DNA of 64,000 nt, from NCBI GenBank assembly GCA_018897555.1, contig JAHIKK010000034.1, positions 4,527-68,526 on the forward strand, read 5' to 3'. A model generated the notes under the pieces. The model had not been told where the DNA came from, did not search any database, and saw nothing but the letters and a program-made list of their open reading frames with translations. Shown here one piece after another: positions 5,013-54,810 of this stretch; within the stretch, counting starts at the first letter, position 1; each line of letters begins with the position of its first letter. The position numbers were made by a program, and so were the translations under genes. The DNA comes from Candidatus Omnitrophota bacterium (lineage in GTDB: Bacteria > Omnitrophota > Gorgyraeia > Gygaellales > Profunditerraquicolaceae).

Positions 5013-5109
5013 TTAAATAATAATAAAGTAAAGTAATGTTCCCCCCTCGCGGGAGCTCGGGGTCAATTTTCCCCAAACGCCGGAGGCTGGGGAAAATTGA
5101 GGAGGAGTT

Positions 5110-24983: not shown

Positions 24984-25945
24984 TTGTTTTAGGAATTGAG
25001 AGCTCTTGCGATGAAACCGGGGTGGCTGTGGTTAAGAATGAAAGAAAAATTTTAGCGAATGTCATTGCCTCTAGCCTAAAATTACATAGCCGCCATGGCG
25101 GGGTGGTTCCGGAGATTGCCTCGCGTATGCAGTTGGAAAGTATCGCCGGCATATTTACTGAGGCAATGCAGATCGCTAAAATTAAGCCTGCGCAGATTGA
25201 CCTGGTTGCGGTTACCACTCATCCGGGTTTACCCGGGTCACTGATAACGGGGATCGCATTTGCCAAAGCACTGGCTTTAAGCTTAGGCAAGCCGATACTG
25301 GGGGTTAATCATATTCATAGCCATATTTATGCCAATCTTCTTTACCCTGAGAAGATTAAATTGCCGGCTGTAGCTTTAGTAGTTTCCGGTGGACATACCT
25401 CTCTTTTTTATCTAAAGGATTTTTCTAAAATCCAGGTATTGGGGCAAACCCGCGATGACGCCTGCGGTGAGGCTTTTGATAAGGTAGCCAAGATTATGGG
25501 GTTGGGTTATCCCGGAGGGCCGTTAATTGAAAAAATAGCTCGAGGTGGAAATGAGCATAAAATTAAGTTTGCTTGTTGGGGAAATACTGAGCTGGATTTT
25601 AGTTTCAGTGGTATAAAAACCGCGGTTTTATATTATTTAAAGGATAAAAAACCCGGCAGTAAATTGCTCAAAGACCTGGCTGCTTCTTTTCAAGAGAGTG
25701 CCGTCAATGTTTTAGTAAAAAAATCCCTGCTTGCCTGTAAACGAAAAAAGGTTAAGCATCTTTTAATCGGCGGCGGGGTGGCGGCCAACGGAGTTTTGCG
25801 TCAAAAATTAATGGCAAGCGCTAAAGCTGCAGGAATTAACTGTTTTTTTCCGAATATTGATCTGTGCATGGATAATGCGGCGATGGTTGCCGGCCTGGGA
25901 GGTTATCTTTATAAGCGCGGCGCAAGGAACGATTTTAAAAACTAG
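24980..25945 (+). CDS. tsaD: tRNA N6-adenosine threonylcarbamoyltransferase
   Basis: MIVLGIESSCDETGVAVV start and HSHIYA metal site. Confidence 0.9.
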   Translation: MIVLGIESSCDETGVAVVKNERKILANVIASSLKLHSRHGGVVPEIASRMQLESIAGIFTEAMQIAKIKPAQIDLVAVTTHPGLPGSLITGIAFAKALALSLGKPILGVNHIHSHIYANLLYPEKIKLPAVALVVSGGHTSLFYLKDFSKIQVLGQTRDDACGEAFDKVAKIMGLGYPGGPLIEKIARGGNEHKIKFACWGNTELDFSFSGIKTAVLYYLKDKKPGSKLLKDLAASFQESAVNVLVKKSLLACKRKKVKHLLIGGGVAANGVLRQKLMASAKAAGINCFFPNIDLCMDNAAMVAGLGGYLYKRGARNDFKN

Positions 25946-25989
25946 GGACCGTTTCTATTTTTCTTTTTAGAAAAATAGAAACGGTCCCT
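25944..25989. repeat. Palindromic repeat copy C, starting at the tsaD stop codon
   Basis: TAGGGACCGTTTCTATTTTTCT-tttt-AGAAAAATAGAAACGGTCCCT. Confidence 0.85.
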
Positions 25990-34900: not shown

Positions 34901-34943
34901 GGGGACGGTTACAGTAGGGGAGGTTTAAACCTCCCCTACTGTT
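34901..34943. repeat. Hairpin element sharing the AAAAACTAGGGGACGGTT flank motif with the palindromic repeat family (13-bp stem ACAGTAGGGGAGG/CCTCCCCTACTGT)
   Basis: Flank motif identical to copies A and C. The palindrome body is different. Confidence 0.6.
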
Positions 34944-42022: not shown

Positions 42023-42136
42023 TAAATTGAGATACCCGACCCGAAGGGGGCGTGGGGGAAAACTTCCCCCACGTATTCGGGGTAACAGCGACGAACGTAA
42101 GTGAGGAGCGCCATAGGGGCAGAGCCCCTTTGGTAC

Positions 42137-50479: not shown

Positions 50480-52045
50480 ATGACAACGGTAAAATTATAC
50501 GATACCACCTTACGGGACGGTTCACAGGCAGAAGGCATATCTTATTCGGTAATGGATAAAATCCGCATTGCTGAAGAGCTGGATAAGATCGGCATACATT
50601 TTATTGAGGGGGGTTGGCCGGGTTCAAATCCTAAGGACCGGGAATTCTTTGAGAAAATAAGCCGGTCTAAACTTAAAAATTCTAAAATTGCTGCTTTTAG
50701 CATGACCCGTAGACCGAACATCCCGGCTGACCAGGATAGTAATTTATTAGCCCTGCTAAAATCTAAAGCCCAAGTAATTACCATCGTCGGTAAAACCTGG
50801 GATTTTCATGTGCTTGAGGTTTTAAAAACTACGCTGGATGAGAATCTGGCGATGATTTTTGACAGTATTGATTTCCTGGTTAAAAAAGGATTCGTAGTAT
50901 TTTATGACGCTGAGCATTTTTTTGATGCCTACCGCGCTAATCAAGATTACGCTTTAAAAACTTTAATCGCCGCCCAAGATGCCGGTTGTTCGGCAGTTTG
51001 TCTTTGCGATACTAACGGCGGGTCTTTAACCAGCCAGATCAGTTCTACGATTAAAGAAATTAAAGGAAAGATCAAGGTGGATTTAGGAATTCATTGCCAT
51101 AATGACGCCGGAGTGGCGATTGCTAATTCCCTGGCCGCGGTAGAGGCCGGAGCAAGCATAGTGCAAGGGACGATTAATGGCTACGGGGAACGCTGCGGAA
51201 ATGCCGACCTAATCCCGATTATTGCGAATTTAAAAATTAAATTAGAGATCGATTGTATCCCGGATGCGCAATTAGAACAGCTGACGCACCTTTCACATTT
51301 TGTTAGTGAAATCAGCAATATGCGTCTAAAGAATGAGCAGCCTTTTGTGGGTGATTCGGCATTCGCGCATAAGGGCGGAATGCATATTAACGCCATAATG
51401 AAAAACCCCAAAACCTACGAACATATTGATCCCTCTTTAGTCGGAAATCATCGCCGGGTTTTAGTTTCCGAACTGGGGGGTAAAACCGGAATCTTATTAA
51501 GGGCCAAAGATTTAAACTACGACCTAACCAAGACCGATCCGCAAACAAAAAAGATTCTGGAATTAGTTCAGGCTTTGGAGCATAAGGGTTTTCAATTTGA
51601 AGCTGCCGAGGCGTCTTTTCAAATATTAATGCAAAGATCTTTAAAGAAATTTAAAAAATTCTTTGAATTAGAAGGATTTAAGGTGGTTATAGAAAAAGGT
51701 AAAGATAAGAAGATTACCTCTGAAGCCATCATCAAGTTAAAGGTCAACGGGGTTAAAGAGCATACTGCCGCTGAAGGAGATGGCCCGATCAACGCATTAG
51801 ACAATGCCCTGCGCAAGGCGTTGAAGGATTTTTACCCGACTTTAGCCAAAATGCATCTGTCCGATTTTAAAGTGCGCGTTCTGGATGAAAAAGCAGGCAC
51901 TGCCGCCCGGGTGCGCGTATTAATCCAATCTCAGGATGGGAAGGACATCTGGAATACAATCGGAGTCCATGAAAATATTATTGAGGCCAGTTGGCAGGCT
52001 CTGGTTGACAGTGTAGAGTATAAGCTCCTAAAGGATAAGCAGTAA
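50480..52045 (+). CDS. 2-isopropylmalate synthase / (R)-citramalate synthase family enzyme (CimA-like)
   Basis: LYDTTLRDGSQAEG HMGL-like TIM-barrel and a LeuA-dimer C-terminal domain. About 521 aa. Confidence 0.8.
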   Translation: MTTVKLYDTTLRDGSQAEGISYSVMDKIRIAEELDKIGIHFIEGGWPGSNPKDREFFEKISRSKLKNSKIAAFSMTRRPNIPADQDSNLLALLKSKAQVITIVGKTWDFHVLEVLKTTLDENLAMIFDSIDFLVKKGFVVFYDAEHFFDAYRANQDYALKTLIAAQDAGCSAVCLCDTNGGSLTSQISSTIKEIKGKIKVDLGIHCHNDAGVAIANSLAAVEAGASIVQGTINGYGERCGNADLIPIIANLKIKLEIDCIPDAQLEQLTHLSHFVSEISNMRLKNEQPFVGDSAFAHKGGMHINAIMKNPKTYEHIDPSLVGNHRRVLVSELGGKTGILLRAKDLNYDLTKTDPQTKKILELVQALEHKGFQFEAAEASFQILMQRSLKKFKKFFELEGFKVVIEKGKDKKITSEAIIKLKVNGVKEHTAAEGDGPINALDNALRKALKDFYPTLAKMHLSDFKVRVLDEKAGTAARVRVLIQSQDGKDIWNTIGVHENIIEASWQALVDSVEYKLLKDKQ

Positions 52046-54810
52046 TGGCGCAAGAGCTTAGTAAGCAGTATAACCCCCAAGATACCGAAAGTAAGTGGTA
52101 TAAAGTTTGGGAGCAAAATAATCTTTTTTCCGCTAAACCCTCCCCGGATAAATTACCCTATTGCATCGTTATTCCGCCGCCTAATGTCACCGGAATCCTG
52201 CACATGGGGCATGCCTTAAATAACACTATTCAAGATATCTTAATCCGTTACAAAAAAATGCGGGGTTTTGCGGCCCTGTGGATGCCGGGAGTGGATCATG
52301 CCGGAATCGCCACGCAAAATGTTGTCGAAAAAGCCCTGGCTAAAGAGGGGCTCAAGCGGCAAGATCTCGGCCGGGAAAAATTCCTGGAGAAAGTCTGGGA
52401 ATGGAAACAACTCTACGGCTCAACCATCATTAACCAGCTTAAAAAACTCGGCTGCGCCTGCGATTGGGAGCGGGCGCGTTTTACCATGGATCAAGAGTAT
52501 TCTTTAGCCGTCACCGAAGTTTTTGTCAGGCTTTATGAAAAAAAACTTATTTACCAAGGCCACTATATTATCAACTGGTGCCCGCGCTGCCAGACGGCGT
52601 TAAGTGATGAAGAGGCAGCGCGCGCGGAATTACAGGGAAGCCTTTATTATTTAAAGTATCCGTTTAAAATACTTGGGGACAGTCCCCAAAAAACGGGGAC
52701 AGTCCCCAAGTATACTGACGAGTTTATTATTGTTGCCACAACCCGGCCAGAAACTATGTTTGGAGATACTGCCGTAGCCGTAAATCCAAAAGACAAGCGC
52801 TATAAAAAATATATCGGAAAAACATTGATCCTTCCGCTAATTAAACGGGAAATAAAAATTATTGCCGATTCCTCCGTTGATATGGAATTTGGAACGGGGG
52901 CCGTCAAGGTCACTCCCGCGCATGACCCCAATGATTATGTTTTGGGCAAAAAACATAATTTGGAATTCATCAAGATAATGCATCCTGACGGCTCGATGAA
53001 TGAAATTGCAGAGAAATACTCCGGGCTGGACCGCTTCAAAGCAAGAGAAGCGGTATTGGAAGATTTAAAACAATTGGGGTTACTTGAAAAGATCATTGCC
53101 CACACGTTTTCTGCCGGCCACTGTTACCGTTGCCAAACCATTGTCGAGCCCTATTTATCCCAACAATGGTTTATAAAAATGAAACCGTTGGCCAAGCCGG
53201 CCATTAAAGCAGTAAAAAAAGGAGAGATTAAATTTTACCCCGATCGTTGGACTAAGGTTTATTTAAACTGGATGGATAATATCCAGGACTGGTGTATCTC
53301 CCGGCAGATCTGGTGGGGACACCGGATGCCGGTTTATTACTGTAAAAATTGCCAGGAGAAAAATCCAAAAGCTGGGATCATCGTATCCAGGATTAAGCCT
53401 TCTAAATGCCCGAAATGCGCATCCGAGAGCCTAACGCAAGAAGAAGATGTCCTGGACACCTGGTTTTCCAGCTGGCTTTGGCCGTTTGCCACCTTCTATT
53501 GGCCTAAAGAAAATGCCGACTTAAAATATTTTTATCCTACTGCAACCCTGGTTACTGCTCCGGAGATTATCTTTTTTTGGGTAGCGCGCATGATTATGGC
53601 GGGTTTTGAATTTAAACAACAAATCCCTTTTAAAAATGTTTATATCCACGGCACGGTGCGCGACAGCCAGGGAAAAAAGATGTCCAAATCCTTAGGTAAT
53701 GCGCTTGACCCCCTGGAGGTCATCGCGGAGTATGGAACAGATGCTTTACGTTTCAGCCTTATCTCGATAACTTCCCAGGGCCAGGATGTATATTTGTCCA
53801 AAGACAGATTTGAACAAGGCAGGAACTTTGCCAATAAAATCTGGAACGCCTCACGCTTTATTCTCATTAACCTTAAGCCTGAAGATGTAAATGTAGATTT
53901 ATGCGTTTTCTTTAAACGCGAACAACTGGATATTGTTAACCGCTGGATCTTAAGCCGTTTTTATACAACTCTGGAGAAAGTAGGCAAAGAATTAGATAAT
54001 TTTAAATTCAATGAAGCTGCCAGTAGCCTGTATGCATTTTTCTGGCATGAATTCTGTGATTGGTACCTGGAATTAATTAAACCTCAAATCGGAGAAAAGC
54101 AAACCCAAATAGTGATGTATAAAGTTTTAGAAAAATACCTCAGGCTGATTCATCCGTTTATGCCTTTTATCTCCGAGGAGATTTGGCAGCGCCTTCCCGG
54201 CGCCAAAGATTCAACCCCTTCGACGCACCCCGGGCTAAAGCCCGGGGTTTGCTCAGGGTTGATGGTGAGCAAAGTCGAACCATCAATTATGCAGCAAAAC
54301 TGGCCGCATTTACAGAGCGAGCTGATCAATAAGCAAGATGAATTACAGATGGAGTTGGCTTTTGAGGTGATTAATGTAATCAGAAATATGCGCGCAGAGT
54401 TGGAGGTTAACCCTGCCAGCCGTATTGACATCCAAATAAGCGCCATGAGTAAACTTACTCAAAAATCTCTGGAGCAGCTTTTAAGCTACATAAAAAATTT
54501 GGCTAAAGTTAACGCTTTAACACTGACCGAGAAATATATCGCCCAAAATAACCAATACGCGGTTGTTTTTAAAGATCTGCATATTGTCATGCCGCTTGAG
54601 GGAGTCGCCGATGCCGCCCAGCAGATTAATAAAACTAATCTAAAAATTGATAAATTAAAATCCGAGATTAAAAATAAAGAGGCAATGCTGGCAAATAAAA
54701 ATTTTACCCTGCGTGCCCCCGAAGAAATTGTAGAAGCAGAAAAAAATAAATTAATCGATATGCGTGAGCAGGTAAAAAAACTGGAGGCAATCAAAAATGG
54801 CTTACGCTAA
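52045..54810 (+). CDS. valS: Valine--tRNA ligase
   Basis: HMGH and KMSKS motifs, a CP1 editing domain and a C-terminal coiled coil. Contains two in-frame GC-rich palindromic insertions (see findings). Confidence 0.95.
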   Translation: MAQELSKQYNPQDTESKWYKVWEQNNLFSAKPSPDKLPYCIVIPPPNVTGILHMGHALNNTIQDILIRYKKMRGFAALWMPGVDHAGIATQNVVEKALAKEGLKRQDLGREKFLEKVWEWKQLYGSTIINQLKKLGCACDWERARFTMDQEYSLAVTEVFVRLYEKKLIYQGHYIINWCPRCQTALSDEEAARAELQGSLYYLKYPFKILGDSPQKTGTVPKYTDEFIIVATTRPETMFGDTAVAVNPKDKRYKKYIGKTLILPLIKREIKIIADSSVDMEFGTGAVKVTPAHDPNDYVLGKKHNLEFIKIMHPDGSMNEIAEKYSGLDRFKAREAVLEDLKQLGLLEKIIAHTFSAGHCYRCQTIVEPYLSQQWFIKMKPLAKPAIKAVKKGEIKFYPDRWTKVYLNWMDNIQDWCISRQIWWGHRMPVYYCKNCQEKNPKAGIIVSRIKPSKCPKCASESLTQEEDVLDTWFSSWLWPFATFYWPKENADLKYFYPTATLVTAPEIIFFWVARMIMAGFEFKQQIPFKNVYIHGTVRDSQGKKMSKSLGNALDPLEVIAEYGTDALRFSLISITSQGQDVYLSKDRFEQGRNFANKIWNASRFILINLKPEDVNVDLCVFFKREQLDIVNRWILSRFYTTLEKVGKELDNFKFNEAASSLYAFFWHEFCDWYLELIKPQIGEKQTQIVMYKVLEKYLRLIHPFMPFISEEIWQRLPGAKDSTPSTHPGLKPGVCSGLMVSKVEPSIMQQNWPHLQSELINKQDELQMELAFEVINVIRNMRAELEVNPASRIDIQISAMSKLTQKSLEQLLSYIKNLAKVNALTLTEKYIAQNNQYAVVFKDLHIVMPLEGVADAAQQINKTNLKIDKLKSEIKNKEAMLANKNFTLRAPEEIVEAEKNKLIDMREQVKKLEAIKNGLR

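Follow-up and report, generated by a model that had tools for sequence, protein, structure and literature searches.

The valS gene of the window, by which the whole stretch of 64 kb is meant here, carries an in-frame insertion that is almost certainly a mobile element tolerated as a loop of the encoded valine--tRNA ligase (ValRS). As a whole, the results are probably explained by a short-form, non-autonomous, structured mobile DNA, which would move by a guided mechanism similar to that of the IS200/IS605 family and would be translated and tolerated within ValRS. Under this explanation, a 24-residue oddity in an essential enzyme would represent selfish DNA rather than an adaptation.

The ORF list and its translation place valS (921 aa) at 52045-54810 on the forward strand, and the Pfam domains tRNA-synt_1, Anticodon_1 and Val_tRNA-synt_C identify it as a complete ValRS whose reading frame is kept, as the earlier note had stated. 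The protein is 100% identical to an Omnitrophica MAG protein at NCBI, the host belonging to the Omnitrophota, and its length compares with a modal ortholog length of 884 aa. Codon alignment with the empty-site orthologs L002, L003 and L004 revealed exactly 72 extra bases (54211-54282, equivalently 54215-54286), which add 24 codons and encode residues 723-746 (STPSTHPGLKPGVCSGLMVSKVEP). The nearest orthologs (L004, 90% identity; L002, 86%; others of lower identity) lack precisely these 72 nt. TCAA marks both junctions, and the empty sites contain it once, that of L002 reading AAT-TCAA-TT; the complete element including both TCAA copies, also delimited by the match of a family covariance model (R1), is 76 nt long (54211-54286, forward strand). 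These boundaries replace those of the earlier note, which had placed an insert of about 80 nt and 26 aa at 54196-54285 and had taken VEP for native sequence: by codon alignment PGAKD is native, VEP is insert-encoded and the native sequence restarts at SIMQQ. The ortholog alignment had been named beforehand as a test, and it showed precise empty sites and no same-length segment in the nearest orthologs. The remark that the block is more GC-rich than the surrounding gene was also confirmed, with a G+C peak of 0.64, whereas most of the valS sequence on either side lies at about 0.31-0.39 and the window averages 0.43. In addition, large indels were restricted to valS over 22 kb of synteny with L002, which ruled out pervasive in-frame indels among the neighbouring genes. 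As judged by these alignments, the valS block is an insertion.

The element begins with the 5' TCAA (54211-54214), the counterpart of the pre-existing target according to the L002 empty site and the family 5'-flank consensus (A)AA-TCAACCC. The outer stem P1 is an inverted repeat formed by the 5' arm TTCGAC (54219-54224), scored as family-invariant, and the 3' arm GTCGAA (54274-54279); across the family it is 94% paired, with 5 of 6 pairs changed on both sides. Hairpin A (ACCCCGGGCT-AA-AGCCCGGGGT; 54227-54248) has a perfect 10-bp stem (arms 54227-54236 and 54239-54248), of variable sequence but maintained pairing among the family, and helix 2 shows compensatory changes in 6 of 6 pairs. Hairpin B (54248-54273) is composed of the stem TTTGCTCA/TGAGCAAA (arms 54248-54255 and 54266-54273), whose core GCTCA/TGAGC is nearly invariant across the family, and of the guide-like loop GGGTTGATGG (54256-54265), complementary to both the 5' junction TCAACCC (54211-54217) and the 3' terminus CCATCAA (54280-54286). 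This terminus ends in the second TCAA, corresponds to the family consensus GTATCAA and is followed by native valS, which restarts with TTATG; all these features are given on the forward strand. Two overlapping inverted repeats reflect the complementarity, TCAACCC/GGGTTGA (54211-54217 and 54256-54262) and TTGATGGT/ACCATCAA (54259-54266 and 54279-54286). The three inverted repeats originally named at the site (TTCGAC/GTCGAA and the arms of hairpins A and B) are all real, but the element is built as a three-way junction, in which one loop is complementary to each of the two termini, and not as simply nested palindromes. Chance palindromes, which had been considered as a possible refutation, do not account for the structure: folded as RNA (z = -3.0) or as single-stranded DNA (-20.7 kcal/mol, z = -4.7), the insert was matched by 0 of 200 shuffles in each case, and it has relatives elsewhere.

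An exact-pattern scan of species-representative genomes, in which a hand estimate gives fewer than one match by chance, revealed at least 118 loci from roughly ten phyla. The family comprises a short form of 76 nt and a long form of about 112 nt (net lengths 72-108 nt), with the outer stem TTCGAC/GTCGAA enclosing two or three hairpins and hence a three- or four-way junction. The R1 model, built from 62 long-form copies only, matched the window at 54209-54286 on the forward strand over its full length with hairpin C deleted (65.9 bits, E = 5.9e-16), while the runner-up in the window (19.6 bits) lay at this site too, on the reverse strand. The absence of exactly 72 nt from the orthologs, together with more than 100 related copies, upheld the central proposal of an in-frame palindromic element in an essential gene. 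The accompanying expectation of further genomic copies failed within the window, where neither a core search with 3 mismatches nor the covariance model with filters off found another one, and was borne out elsewhere, with 24 of 104 copies lying inside long ORFs.

The termini follow the rule (A)TCAACCC ... NNATCAA, with a hairpin-B loop GGGTTGATNN complementary to both, and the window copy (TCAACCC / GGGTTGATGG / CCATCAA) fits this rule, to which its GG/CC pair also conforms. Flanking sequence is conserved on the 5' side ((A)AATCAA) and random on the 3' side. The ends TCAACCC... and ...GTATCAA are direct and not inverted repeats, the flanking repeat being of fixed sequence, and according to alignments A1/A2 and the stem counts the hairpins are subterminal; apart from the internal P1, terminal inverted repeats are lacking. 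As flank and end have one motif in common (ATCAA), a target-site duplication of 4-5 bp is indistinguishable from insertion beside the target. Some copies are arranged in tandem with one TCAA common to neighbours, as would follow if the right end also served as a target.

Judged by genome labels, this multi-copy family spans several phyla; these labels are those of metagenome bins, some from the same samples, and part of the spread could be binning error, although the interrupted housekeeping genes described below argue against this as a general explanation. Rickettsiales were represented by 0 of the labelled loci of the genome scan. Phage or plasmid carriers were discarded after 0 matches to the element in viral contigs and 0 in plasmids. 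Literature searches by sequence string and by topic returned no description of the family, which is apparently undescribed so far. An origin from a tRNA or tmRNA fragment was also rejected, the minus strand being slightly T-arm-like and ARAGORN finding nothing at the site, and an integron attC-like reading was provisionally set aside, since by the R''/R' consensus the inner boxes appear unpaired.

On the evidence of the family alignment, the stems are maintained by compensatory changes. Paired cells amount to 91%, and 27 of 30 pairs are changed on both sides; compensatory cells numbered 177 in the alignment and 42 in shuffles, with 0 of 500 shuffles reaching the observed count. Sliding the pairing partners made the signal collapse. 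The same holds for the loop-to-end pairings: pk1 is 98.5% paired, and two-sided changes in pk2 number 14 cells, compared with 2.2 in shuffles. In 97 of 104 copies, the two loop bases that vary are complementary to the dinucleotide preceding ATCAA, the pairs being of four types (AC/GT 85, GC/GC 5, CC/GG 4, GG/CC 3), and coordinated triple variants occur in L008 (TAAA/TTTA/TAAA) and in L001 (TCGA/TCGA/TCGA), triple covariation of loop, 5' junction and 3' end being confined to a handful of copies. Across the aligned copies, 5' junction and 3' terminus alike are complementary to the hairpin loop and covary with it. Reading the active strand from the stem mismatches was abandoned as uninformative, since G.U-type (88) and A.C-type (100) mismatches are equally frequent and indicate neither the active strand nor the single-strandedness of the active form.

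Among the copies within long ORFs, eight of the element-carrying ORFs are real genes with Pfam domains flanking or spanning the insert, and PurL, IleRS, HisRS, Lnt and CoaX are interrupted in frame. With respect to the host genes, copies face either way and use several reading frames, and others are intergenic. The gene-internal ones are almost all multiples of three and stop-free; 14 are read through in frame and 2 would need removal to restore the ORF, a ratio which favours translation over removal. Searches of protein databases with the canonical element peptide matched only unnamed ORFs of 40-70 aa, so the number of interrupted genes is not estimable from a protein search. In the predicted structure of ValRS, on which the earlier note had suggested placing the loop, residues 723-744 have pLDDT values below 50 and lie between confident helices. 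The insertion site follows residue ~700 of the solved ValRS of T. thermophilus, and in other orthologs the loop accommodates short inserts of four further kinds. Most likely, as far as the model indicates, the insert is tolerated as a disordered surface loop at a permissive position where the anticodon-binding helix bundle ends. Spurious "hypothetical proteins" are a further product of the family, as are differences in length between housekeeping genes of uncultured lineages.

The insert is patchily distributed among ValRS orthologs and the empty sites are precise, which fits scarless excision or recent insertion. Between the window and L102, the element shows 0 differences in 76 nt, compared to 13 differences in 240 nt of flanks. 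The ValRS of L001 carries an insert at the same site with a diverged peptide and a decayed hairpin. Common ancestry of this insert and that of the window was rejected: the two ValRS are not sisters, the nearest relatives of each are empty, and the window copy resembles a purL copy from another phylum (91% identity) more than the valS copy of L001 (75%). The two inserts are read, from these comparisons, as independent insertions at one permissive codon.

With regard to how the element moves, a single-strand, guide-directed mechanism is suggested by analogy; we regard it as a serious candidate, without calling it probable. One DNA strand would fold and be cleaved twice, on the left behind the flanking (A)TCAA and on the right behind the terminal ...ATCAA, the element would leave scarlessly as a small single-stranded circle, and it would re-insert 3' of another (A)TCAA, recognised through base pairing with the internal TTGAT loop and not by protein alone. 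The window copy would be a short 76-nt form that entered valS at a TCAA before the window organism and a sister species diverged, and the ribosome would read through it, adding a disordered loop of 24 residues. The mobilising enzyme would act in trans. Clustering of 2,045 ORFs from the 8-kb flanks of the copies revealed no recurrent transposase, only ABC ATPases and response regulators, for which reason an adjoining transposase was dismissed as the mobiliser; no long autonomous version was found among the matched loci. Both absences count against this mechanism.

A bolder reading, offered tentatively, is that of a natural programmable mini-transposon, single-stranded and of 72-108 nt, whose own 7-10-nt guide loop sets both the cut and the landing sites. 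Changing the loop from TTGA to TCGA or TTTA would then retarget it to TCGA or TAAA, the trans-acting enzyme would be common enough for spread over about ten phyla, and master copies kept at multiples of three and largely stop-free would persist inside essential genes. If the guide loop does act in this way, the family would be the smallest known element with its own target specifier and common to very distant bacteria, and it would become testable how far nucleic-acid-guided targeting extends below IS200/IS605 size and how such an element crosses phylum boundaries. A target rule so strict, short and reprogrammable in appearance could also interest engineers of single-strand transposases.

Movement as double-stranded DNA is an unlikely alternative, in which a cut-and-paste MITE duplicates TCAA or ATCAA, or a tiny recombinase cassette uses TCAA as its crossover core, the internal TTGAT being a protein-binding repeat instead of a guide. 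Identical TCAA copies on both sides of the insert, with one in the empty site, are what a duplication or a crossover core would leave, and the tandem copies with one common TCAA and the lack of strand bias in the stem mismatches are equally compatible with it. Such an element would, however, have no terminal inverted repeats beyond the internal P1 and a target preference of a strictness unusual for DDE MITEs, and it would leave unexplained both the loop changing together with the two flanking copies and its covariation with two bases beyond the 3' ATCAA. A double-stranded DNA circle of 72-108 bp is too stiff to be a plausible intermediate.

An element acting at the RNA level, either a self-excising mini-intron whose loop aligns the junctions while the mRNA is resealed or a structured RNA functional within transcripts, is considered very unlikely. 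The loop is complementary to the joint of the 3' to the 5' end (GTATCAACCC), single-base variants in the 5' TCAA give G.U-compatible loop pairs (UG 4), and the strong compensatory changes and the RNA fold reported above would suit it, but the plus strand shows no excess of G.U over A.C, copies lie in both orientations relative to host genes, and the conserved bases are in helices, whereas known small ribozymes conserve junctions. A known RNA family or ribozyme was discounted after Rfam 15 gave nothing credible: there was no gathering-level match in 12 loci, matches at E <= 10 on the window copy and the canonical long form were at chance level only, and the best (twister-P5) reached 17.7 bits against a threshold of 37.6. 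Moreover, splicing-out would impose no constraint on frame or stops, so the read-through copies, nearly all stop-free multiples of three, count against RNA excision. That the insert is an adaptive loop, a functional extension of ValRS specific to this lineage whose DNA is palindromic by coincidence, is highly improbable. The identity of the element in the window and L102 over diverged flanks, the kept frame and the intact valS would agree with it; it is largely refuted by the family comparison, as the same family is intergenic and in unrelated genes, in several frames and both orientations, the peptide is predicted to be disordered, the nearest relative lacks the insert, and in the same-site copy of L001 the peptide has diverged and the hairpin has decayed.

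The preferred reading, a guided single-strand element, draws on the IS200/IS605 family, of which ISDra2 inserts 3' of TTGAT and is excised precisely (PMC2806898); target and end motifs are read by DNA guides, and gene-less derivatives known as PATEs exist (PMC10055086). The valS family resembles these elements in its subterminal hairpins without terminal inverted repeats, its conserved short motif at the left flank and right terminus (ATCAA, the reverse complement of the ISDra2 target TTGAT), the complementarity of this motif to sequence inside the element, here with covariation, its precise empty sites, and its short, non-autonomous nature. It differs in that each end hairpin of IS608 has a tetranucleotide guide at its 5' foot, whereas one hairpin loop of 7-10 nt with Watson-Crick pairing would serve both ends in the valS family, which is not the known architecture and counts against the guided reading; in addition, the outer stem joins the two ends of the element by pairing, no cognate TnpA came to light in the 8-kb flanks of the copies, and near-identical copies occur across phyla. 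To our knowledge, the described PATEs are all far larger than 72-108 nt net.

Classical bacterial MITEs such as Correia/NEMIS and Nezha, the subject of a review (PMC10969869), are likewise non-autonomous, multi-copy, foldable and sometimes located within genes, but they are defined by terminal inverted repeats and DDE-made target-site duplications, and in the valS family no clear terminal inverted repeats are present and no duplication of arbitrary sequence can be demonstrated. The REP/REPIN sequences (PMC3733652) share with it short GC-rich hairpins, a conserved short motif beside the stem and a presumed mobilisation in trans by an IS200-like enzyme (RAYT, a Y1 HUH protein, for REPs); REPs are 20-40 nt long, extragenic, species-specific and tagged by GTAG or CGTC, while the valS family is larger, multi-hairpin, often intragenic and common to several phyla.

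The Rickettsia palindromic elements (RPE), reportedly introduced by Ogata et al. in 2000, are the system with which the block had been compared at the outset. They are also mentioned in PMC1779305. Both are short palindromic repeats (about 100-150 nt) found in intergenic regions and within protein-coding genes, essential ones included, where the frame is maintained and the protein gains a segment at a position that tolerates it, and in this behaviour the comparison was sound. Membership in the RPE families is unlikely: no sequence relationship is known, RPEs are confined to Rickettsia, in contrast to about ten phylum labels for the valS family, and a strict (A)TCAA site, a defined three- or four-way junction and an end-complementary loop are not described RPE features. 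The valS element may thus be regarded as an analogue of the RPEs and not as one of them.

The region 54196-54285, which the earlier note had described as a GC-rich palindromic insertion of ~26 aa in valS, lies within a 2,766-nt open reading frame (52045-54810, + strand; ORF list and translation). The product was identified by Pfam as a complete valyl-tRNA synthetase (ValRS) with catalytic domain, anticodon-binding domain and C-terminal arm; it matches an NCBI Candidatus Omnitrophica MAG entry at 100% identity and has 921 aa, against a modal 884 aa in the best 120 orthologs. Codon alignment with the valS DNA of four relatives revealed exactly 72 extra bases (54211-54282) in the window as compared to L004, the closest relative (90% ValRS amino acid identity), and L002 (86% identity, synteny over 22 kb). 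The insertion is thus inside the claimed region and keeps the frame, but it is shorter than proposed, encoding 24 residues (723-746; STPSTHPGLKPGVCSGLMVSKVEP): PGAKD, previously counted as inserted, is native, while VEP, previously counted as native, is encoded by the insert. The empty site of L002 reads ...AAA AAT/TCA ATT ATG and the filled site ...AAA GAT/TCAA CCC...CCA/TCAA TT ATG, and hence the empty site has a single TCAA and the insert has one TCAA at each junction.

All the inverted repeats named in the earlier note were found, together with two more (TCAACCC/GGGTTGA and TTGATGGT/ACCATCAA), and the contrast in composition also held, with a G+C peak of 0.64 as compared to ~0.31-0.39 in most of the flanking valS. 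The RNA fold of the segment was better than that of shuffled sequences (z = -3.0), and its single-stranded DNA fold was a three-way junction of -20.7 kcal/mol (z = -4.7). On the solved T. thermophilus ValRS, the insertion site maps after residue ~700, which we take to be where the anticodon-binding helix bundle ends. An AlphaFold model of moderate overall quality (mean pLDDT 65), but good in the domain holding the insert, allowed the extra loop to be placed: residues 723-744 form a coil of pLDDT below 50 with confident helices on either side.

Other copies of the element do exist. The pattern TTCGAC-N20-34-CTCAGGGTYGATNNTGAGC, which combines features common to the window copy and the valS copy of the relative L001, matched at least 118 loci in a collection of species-representative genomes, where a back-of-envelope estimate gives fewer than one chance match; two loci (L033 and L044) were judged from sequence context to be chance matches and were excluded from the model search. 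According to record titles, the loci belong to Omnitrophota, Thermodesulfobacteriota/Syntrophaceae, Aminicenantes, NC10, Patescibacteria (Parcubacteria, Sungbacteria, Saccharibacteria), Planctomycetota (Scalindua, Brocadiaceae), Nitrospirota, Elusimicrobia, Binatia and Proteobacteria bins, with several copies per genome and sub-variants specific to single genomes, such as the Aminicenantia OBJ_0618 set. The canonical long form has ~112 nt, (A)ATCAACCC-A-TTCGAC-[hairpin A]-TAT-GCTCAG-GGTTGATA-CTGAGC-[hairpin C]-GTCGAA-C-GTATCAA, while the short form, to which the window copy belongs, has 76 nt and lacks hairpin C. With a covariance model (R1) built from 62 long-form copies, the window copy scored 65.9 bits (E = 5.9e-16), and no second convincing copy was detected in the 64 kb. 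No Rfam family matched the element, no copies were found in plasmids or viral contigs, and protein database matches were only unnamed ORFs of 40-70 aa over intergenic copies, without Pfam domain. The signature strings and description of the family were not found in openly accessible literature; an earlier description may exist in subscription literature, ISfinder or Dfam. A smaller repeat of ~26 nt, TCC-TTCGAC-TGCGCTCAGGACAAGCG, which includes a TTCGAC of its own and a hairpin of 5 bp, sits in the hairpin A loop of several members (L032:3300-3476, L046:4717-4854, L036:4657-4794, L115:3116-3253, L119:1-108, L026, L061 and L087), and hairpin C of L011, L019 and L087 holds additional nested pieces; members of the family seem to serve each other as targets.

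Among the 104 delimited copies, 24 are inside long open frames, in both orientations and several frames. Eight of the interrupted genes were confirmed as genuine by Pfam domains that lie on both sides of the insert or span it; they encode PurL (L093, whose copy is 91% identical to the window element), IleRS (L034), Lnt (L088), HisRS of a Saccharibacteria bin (L045), a metallophosphoesterase (L067), CoaX (L049), SpoIID (L053) and a spermidine-synthase-like protein (L022). Fourteen copies read through in frame, and only two further cases gained a long ORF when the element was cleanly removed, which indicates that gene-internal copies are translated rather than spliced out. In 65/104 copies (43/80 outside ORFs) the net length is divisible by three, which is suggestive only, the copies being non-independent. 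The element in valS is selfish DNA; the palindromic, in-frame insertion into an essential gene proposed earlier is borne out, its likeness to RPE holding as an analogy only.

Base pairing was conserved across the family. In 112 model-aligned copies, 91% of cells were paired, 27 of 30 pairs had changes on both sides, and compensatory cells numbered 177 as compared to 42 in shuffles (0/500 as high); fitting the alignment to a model biases it toward structure, but bias alone hardly explains the number of pair types or the loss of signal when partners were shifted by one to three columns. These data indicate that the structure of the family is kept by selection. The hairpin B loop, GGGTTGATNN, has complementarity with the 5' junction (A)TCAACCC, paired in 98.5% of cells, and also with the 3' end NNATCAA, with both-side changes in 14 cells against 2.2 in shuffles; the model treats these loop and 3'-end columns as unpaired, and this second pairing was therefore not imposed on the alignment. 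Two variable loop bases complement the two bases preceding ATCAA in 97/104 copies, with four pair types. Alteration of the TTGA loop core was accompanied by a matching change in both flanking copies in L008 (loop TTTA, flanks TAAA and TAAA) and L001 (TCGA in all three places), and by a partial match in L059. Since one of the two flanking TCAA was already in the target, the insertion site matches the internal loop of the element.

Regarding the history of the valS insertion, L102, another Omnitrophota bin with ~93% nucleotide identity to the window, has an identical element at this site: none of its 76 nt differ, as compared to 13 of 240 nt in the flanks. As L102 is filled and L004 empty, the insertion is older than the split between window and L102 and younger than that from L004. 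Zero change (L102:2589-2666 versus 54209-54286) has a chance probability of ~0.015 and might be explained by constraint acting on the element, by gene conversion or by chance. In L001 the codon is interrupted by a related insert, also of 72 nt. Common inheritance is argued against by its ValRS, which is not sister to that of the window and whose nearest relative, L003, is empty at the site, and by the copy itself, which is only 75% identical, has a decayed hairpin A and uses TCGA in all three places. We read these sequences as two independent insertions at one permissive position, and the ortholog alignment revealed unrelated short inserts at this position in other ValRS.

Further inserts and hairpins were observed. 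Window valS has a second, different in-frame insertion of 39 extra nt (52669-52719; peptide ..ILGDSPQKTGTVPKYTD), which holds the perfect palindrome GGGGACAGTCCCC twice (52675-52687 and 52695-52707, 7 nt between) and which the AlphaFold model places at residues 211-222, in a beta-hairpin loop of low confidence. L102, L004, L002 and L001 lack this insertion, which is thus younger than the 72-nt element, and its motif was not found in 873 kb of other loci; inserts of the 'GTVP' type are present in other Omnitrophota ValRS, at other positions. In the alignment of orthologs P0001-P0120, Omnitrophota ValRS is a hotspot of short lineage-specific inserts, at ~20 loop positions, including peptide types that recur from ortholog to ortholog at differing sites (GLSPKGTVPE; QPSAVSLQP, at two sites; VNPVRSGAPRRGISN; VIARTASAAKQDE along with RCHCEPKA and SDCFVADAPRNDNL), which suggests several additional repeat families inserting in frame. 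Elsewhere in the window are a perfect 21-bp stem with TTTT loop (AGGGACCGTTTCTATTTTTCT/AGAAAAATAGAAACGGTCCCT; 25944-25989), much longer than an ordinary terminator stem, in the 49 nt that separate two + strand ORFs; a perfect 32-nt palindrome (ACAGTAGGGGAGGTTT/AAACCTCCCCTACTGT; 34911-34942) between divergent ORFs, possibly an operator; and perfect intergenic hairpins of 13 bp (TCAATTTTCCCCA; 5063-5100), immediately upstream of an ORF, and 10 bp (CGTGGGGGAA; 42051-42073), ~30 nt downstream of tRNA-Thr and before tRNA-Tyr. Upstream of valS, the leuA-like gene, a single 521-aa gene in the window and L002, is called as two ORFs (134 and 382 aa) in L003:351-1916, which could be a frameshift, pseudogene or assembly error.

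The 5' flank of the copies is conserved, with A at -1 and -2 in ~85%, and beyond the 3' ATCAA the sequence is random. When metagenomes were scanned for the junction predicted between right end and left end, five contigs had tandem copies with one common TCAA, the units of each pair differing at several positions. The complementarity of one loop to target and both ends, and the spread across phyla, merit more study. The element might move by "peel-and-paste", as IS200/IS605 elements and their gene-less derivatives (PATE) do. This mechanism is proposed tentatively, at somewhat less than even probability, because a single long loop serves both ends, unlike the two tetranucleotide guides of IS200/IS605, an outer stem joins the two ends, neither a transposase in the flanks of family copies nor an autonomous version among the family matches was found, and the mismatch spectrum points to no active strand. 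In IS200/IS605 and PATE, DNA guides read flank and end motifs, and excision is scarless (PMC10055086). The family resembles them in the absence of terminal inverted repeats, the subterminal hairpins, a conserved flank motif that recurs at the right terminus and is complementary to internal sequence, the precise empty sites, the tandem copies with the motif in common and the very small size; moreover, the target of ISDra2, of the IS200/IS605 family, is TTGAT (PMC2806898), the reverse complement of the family motif ATCAA.
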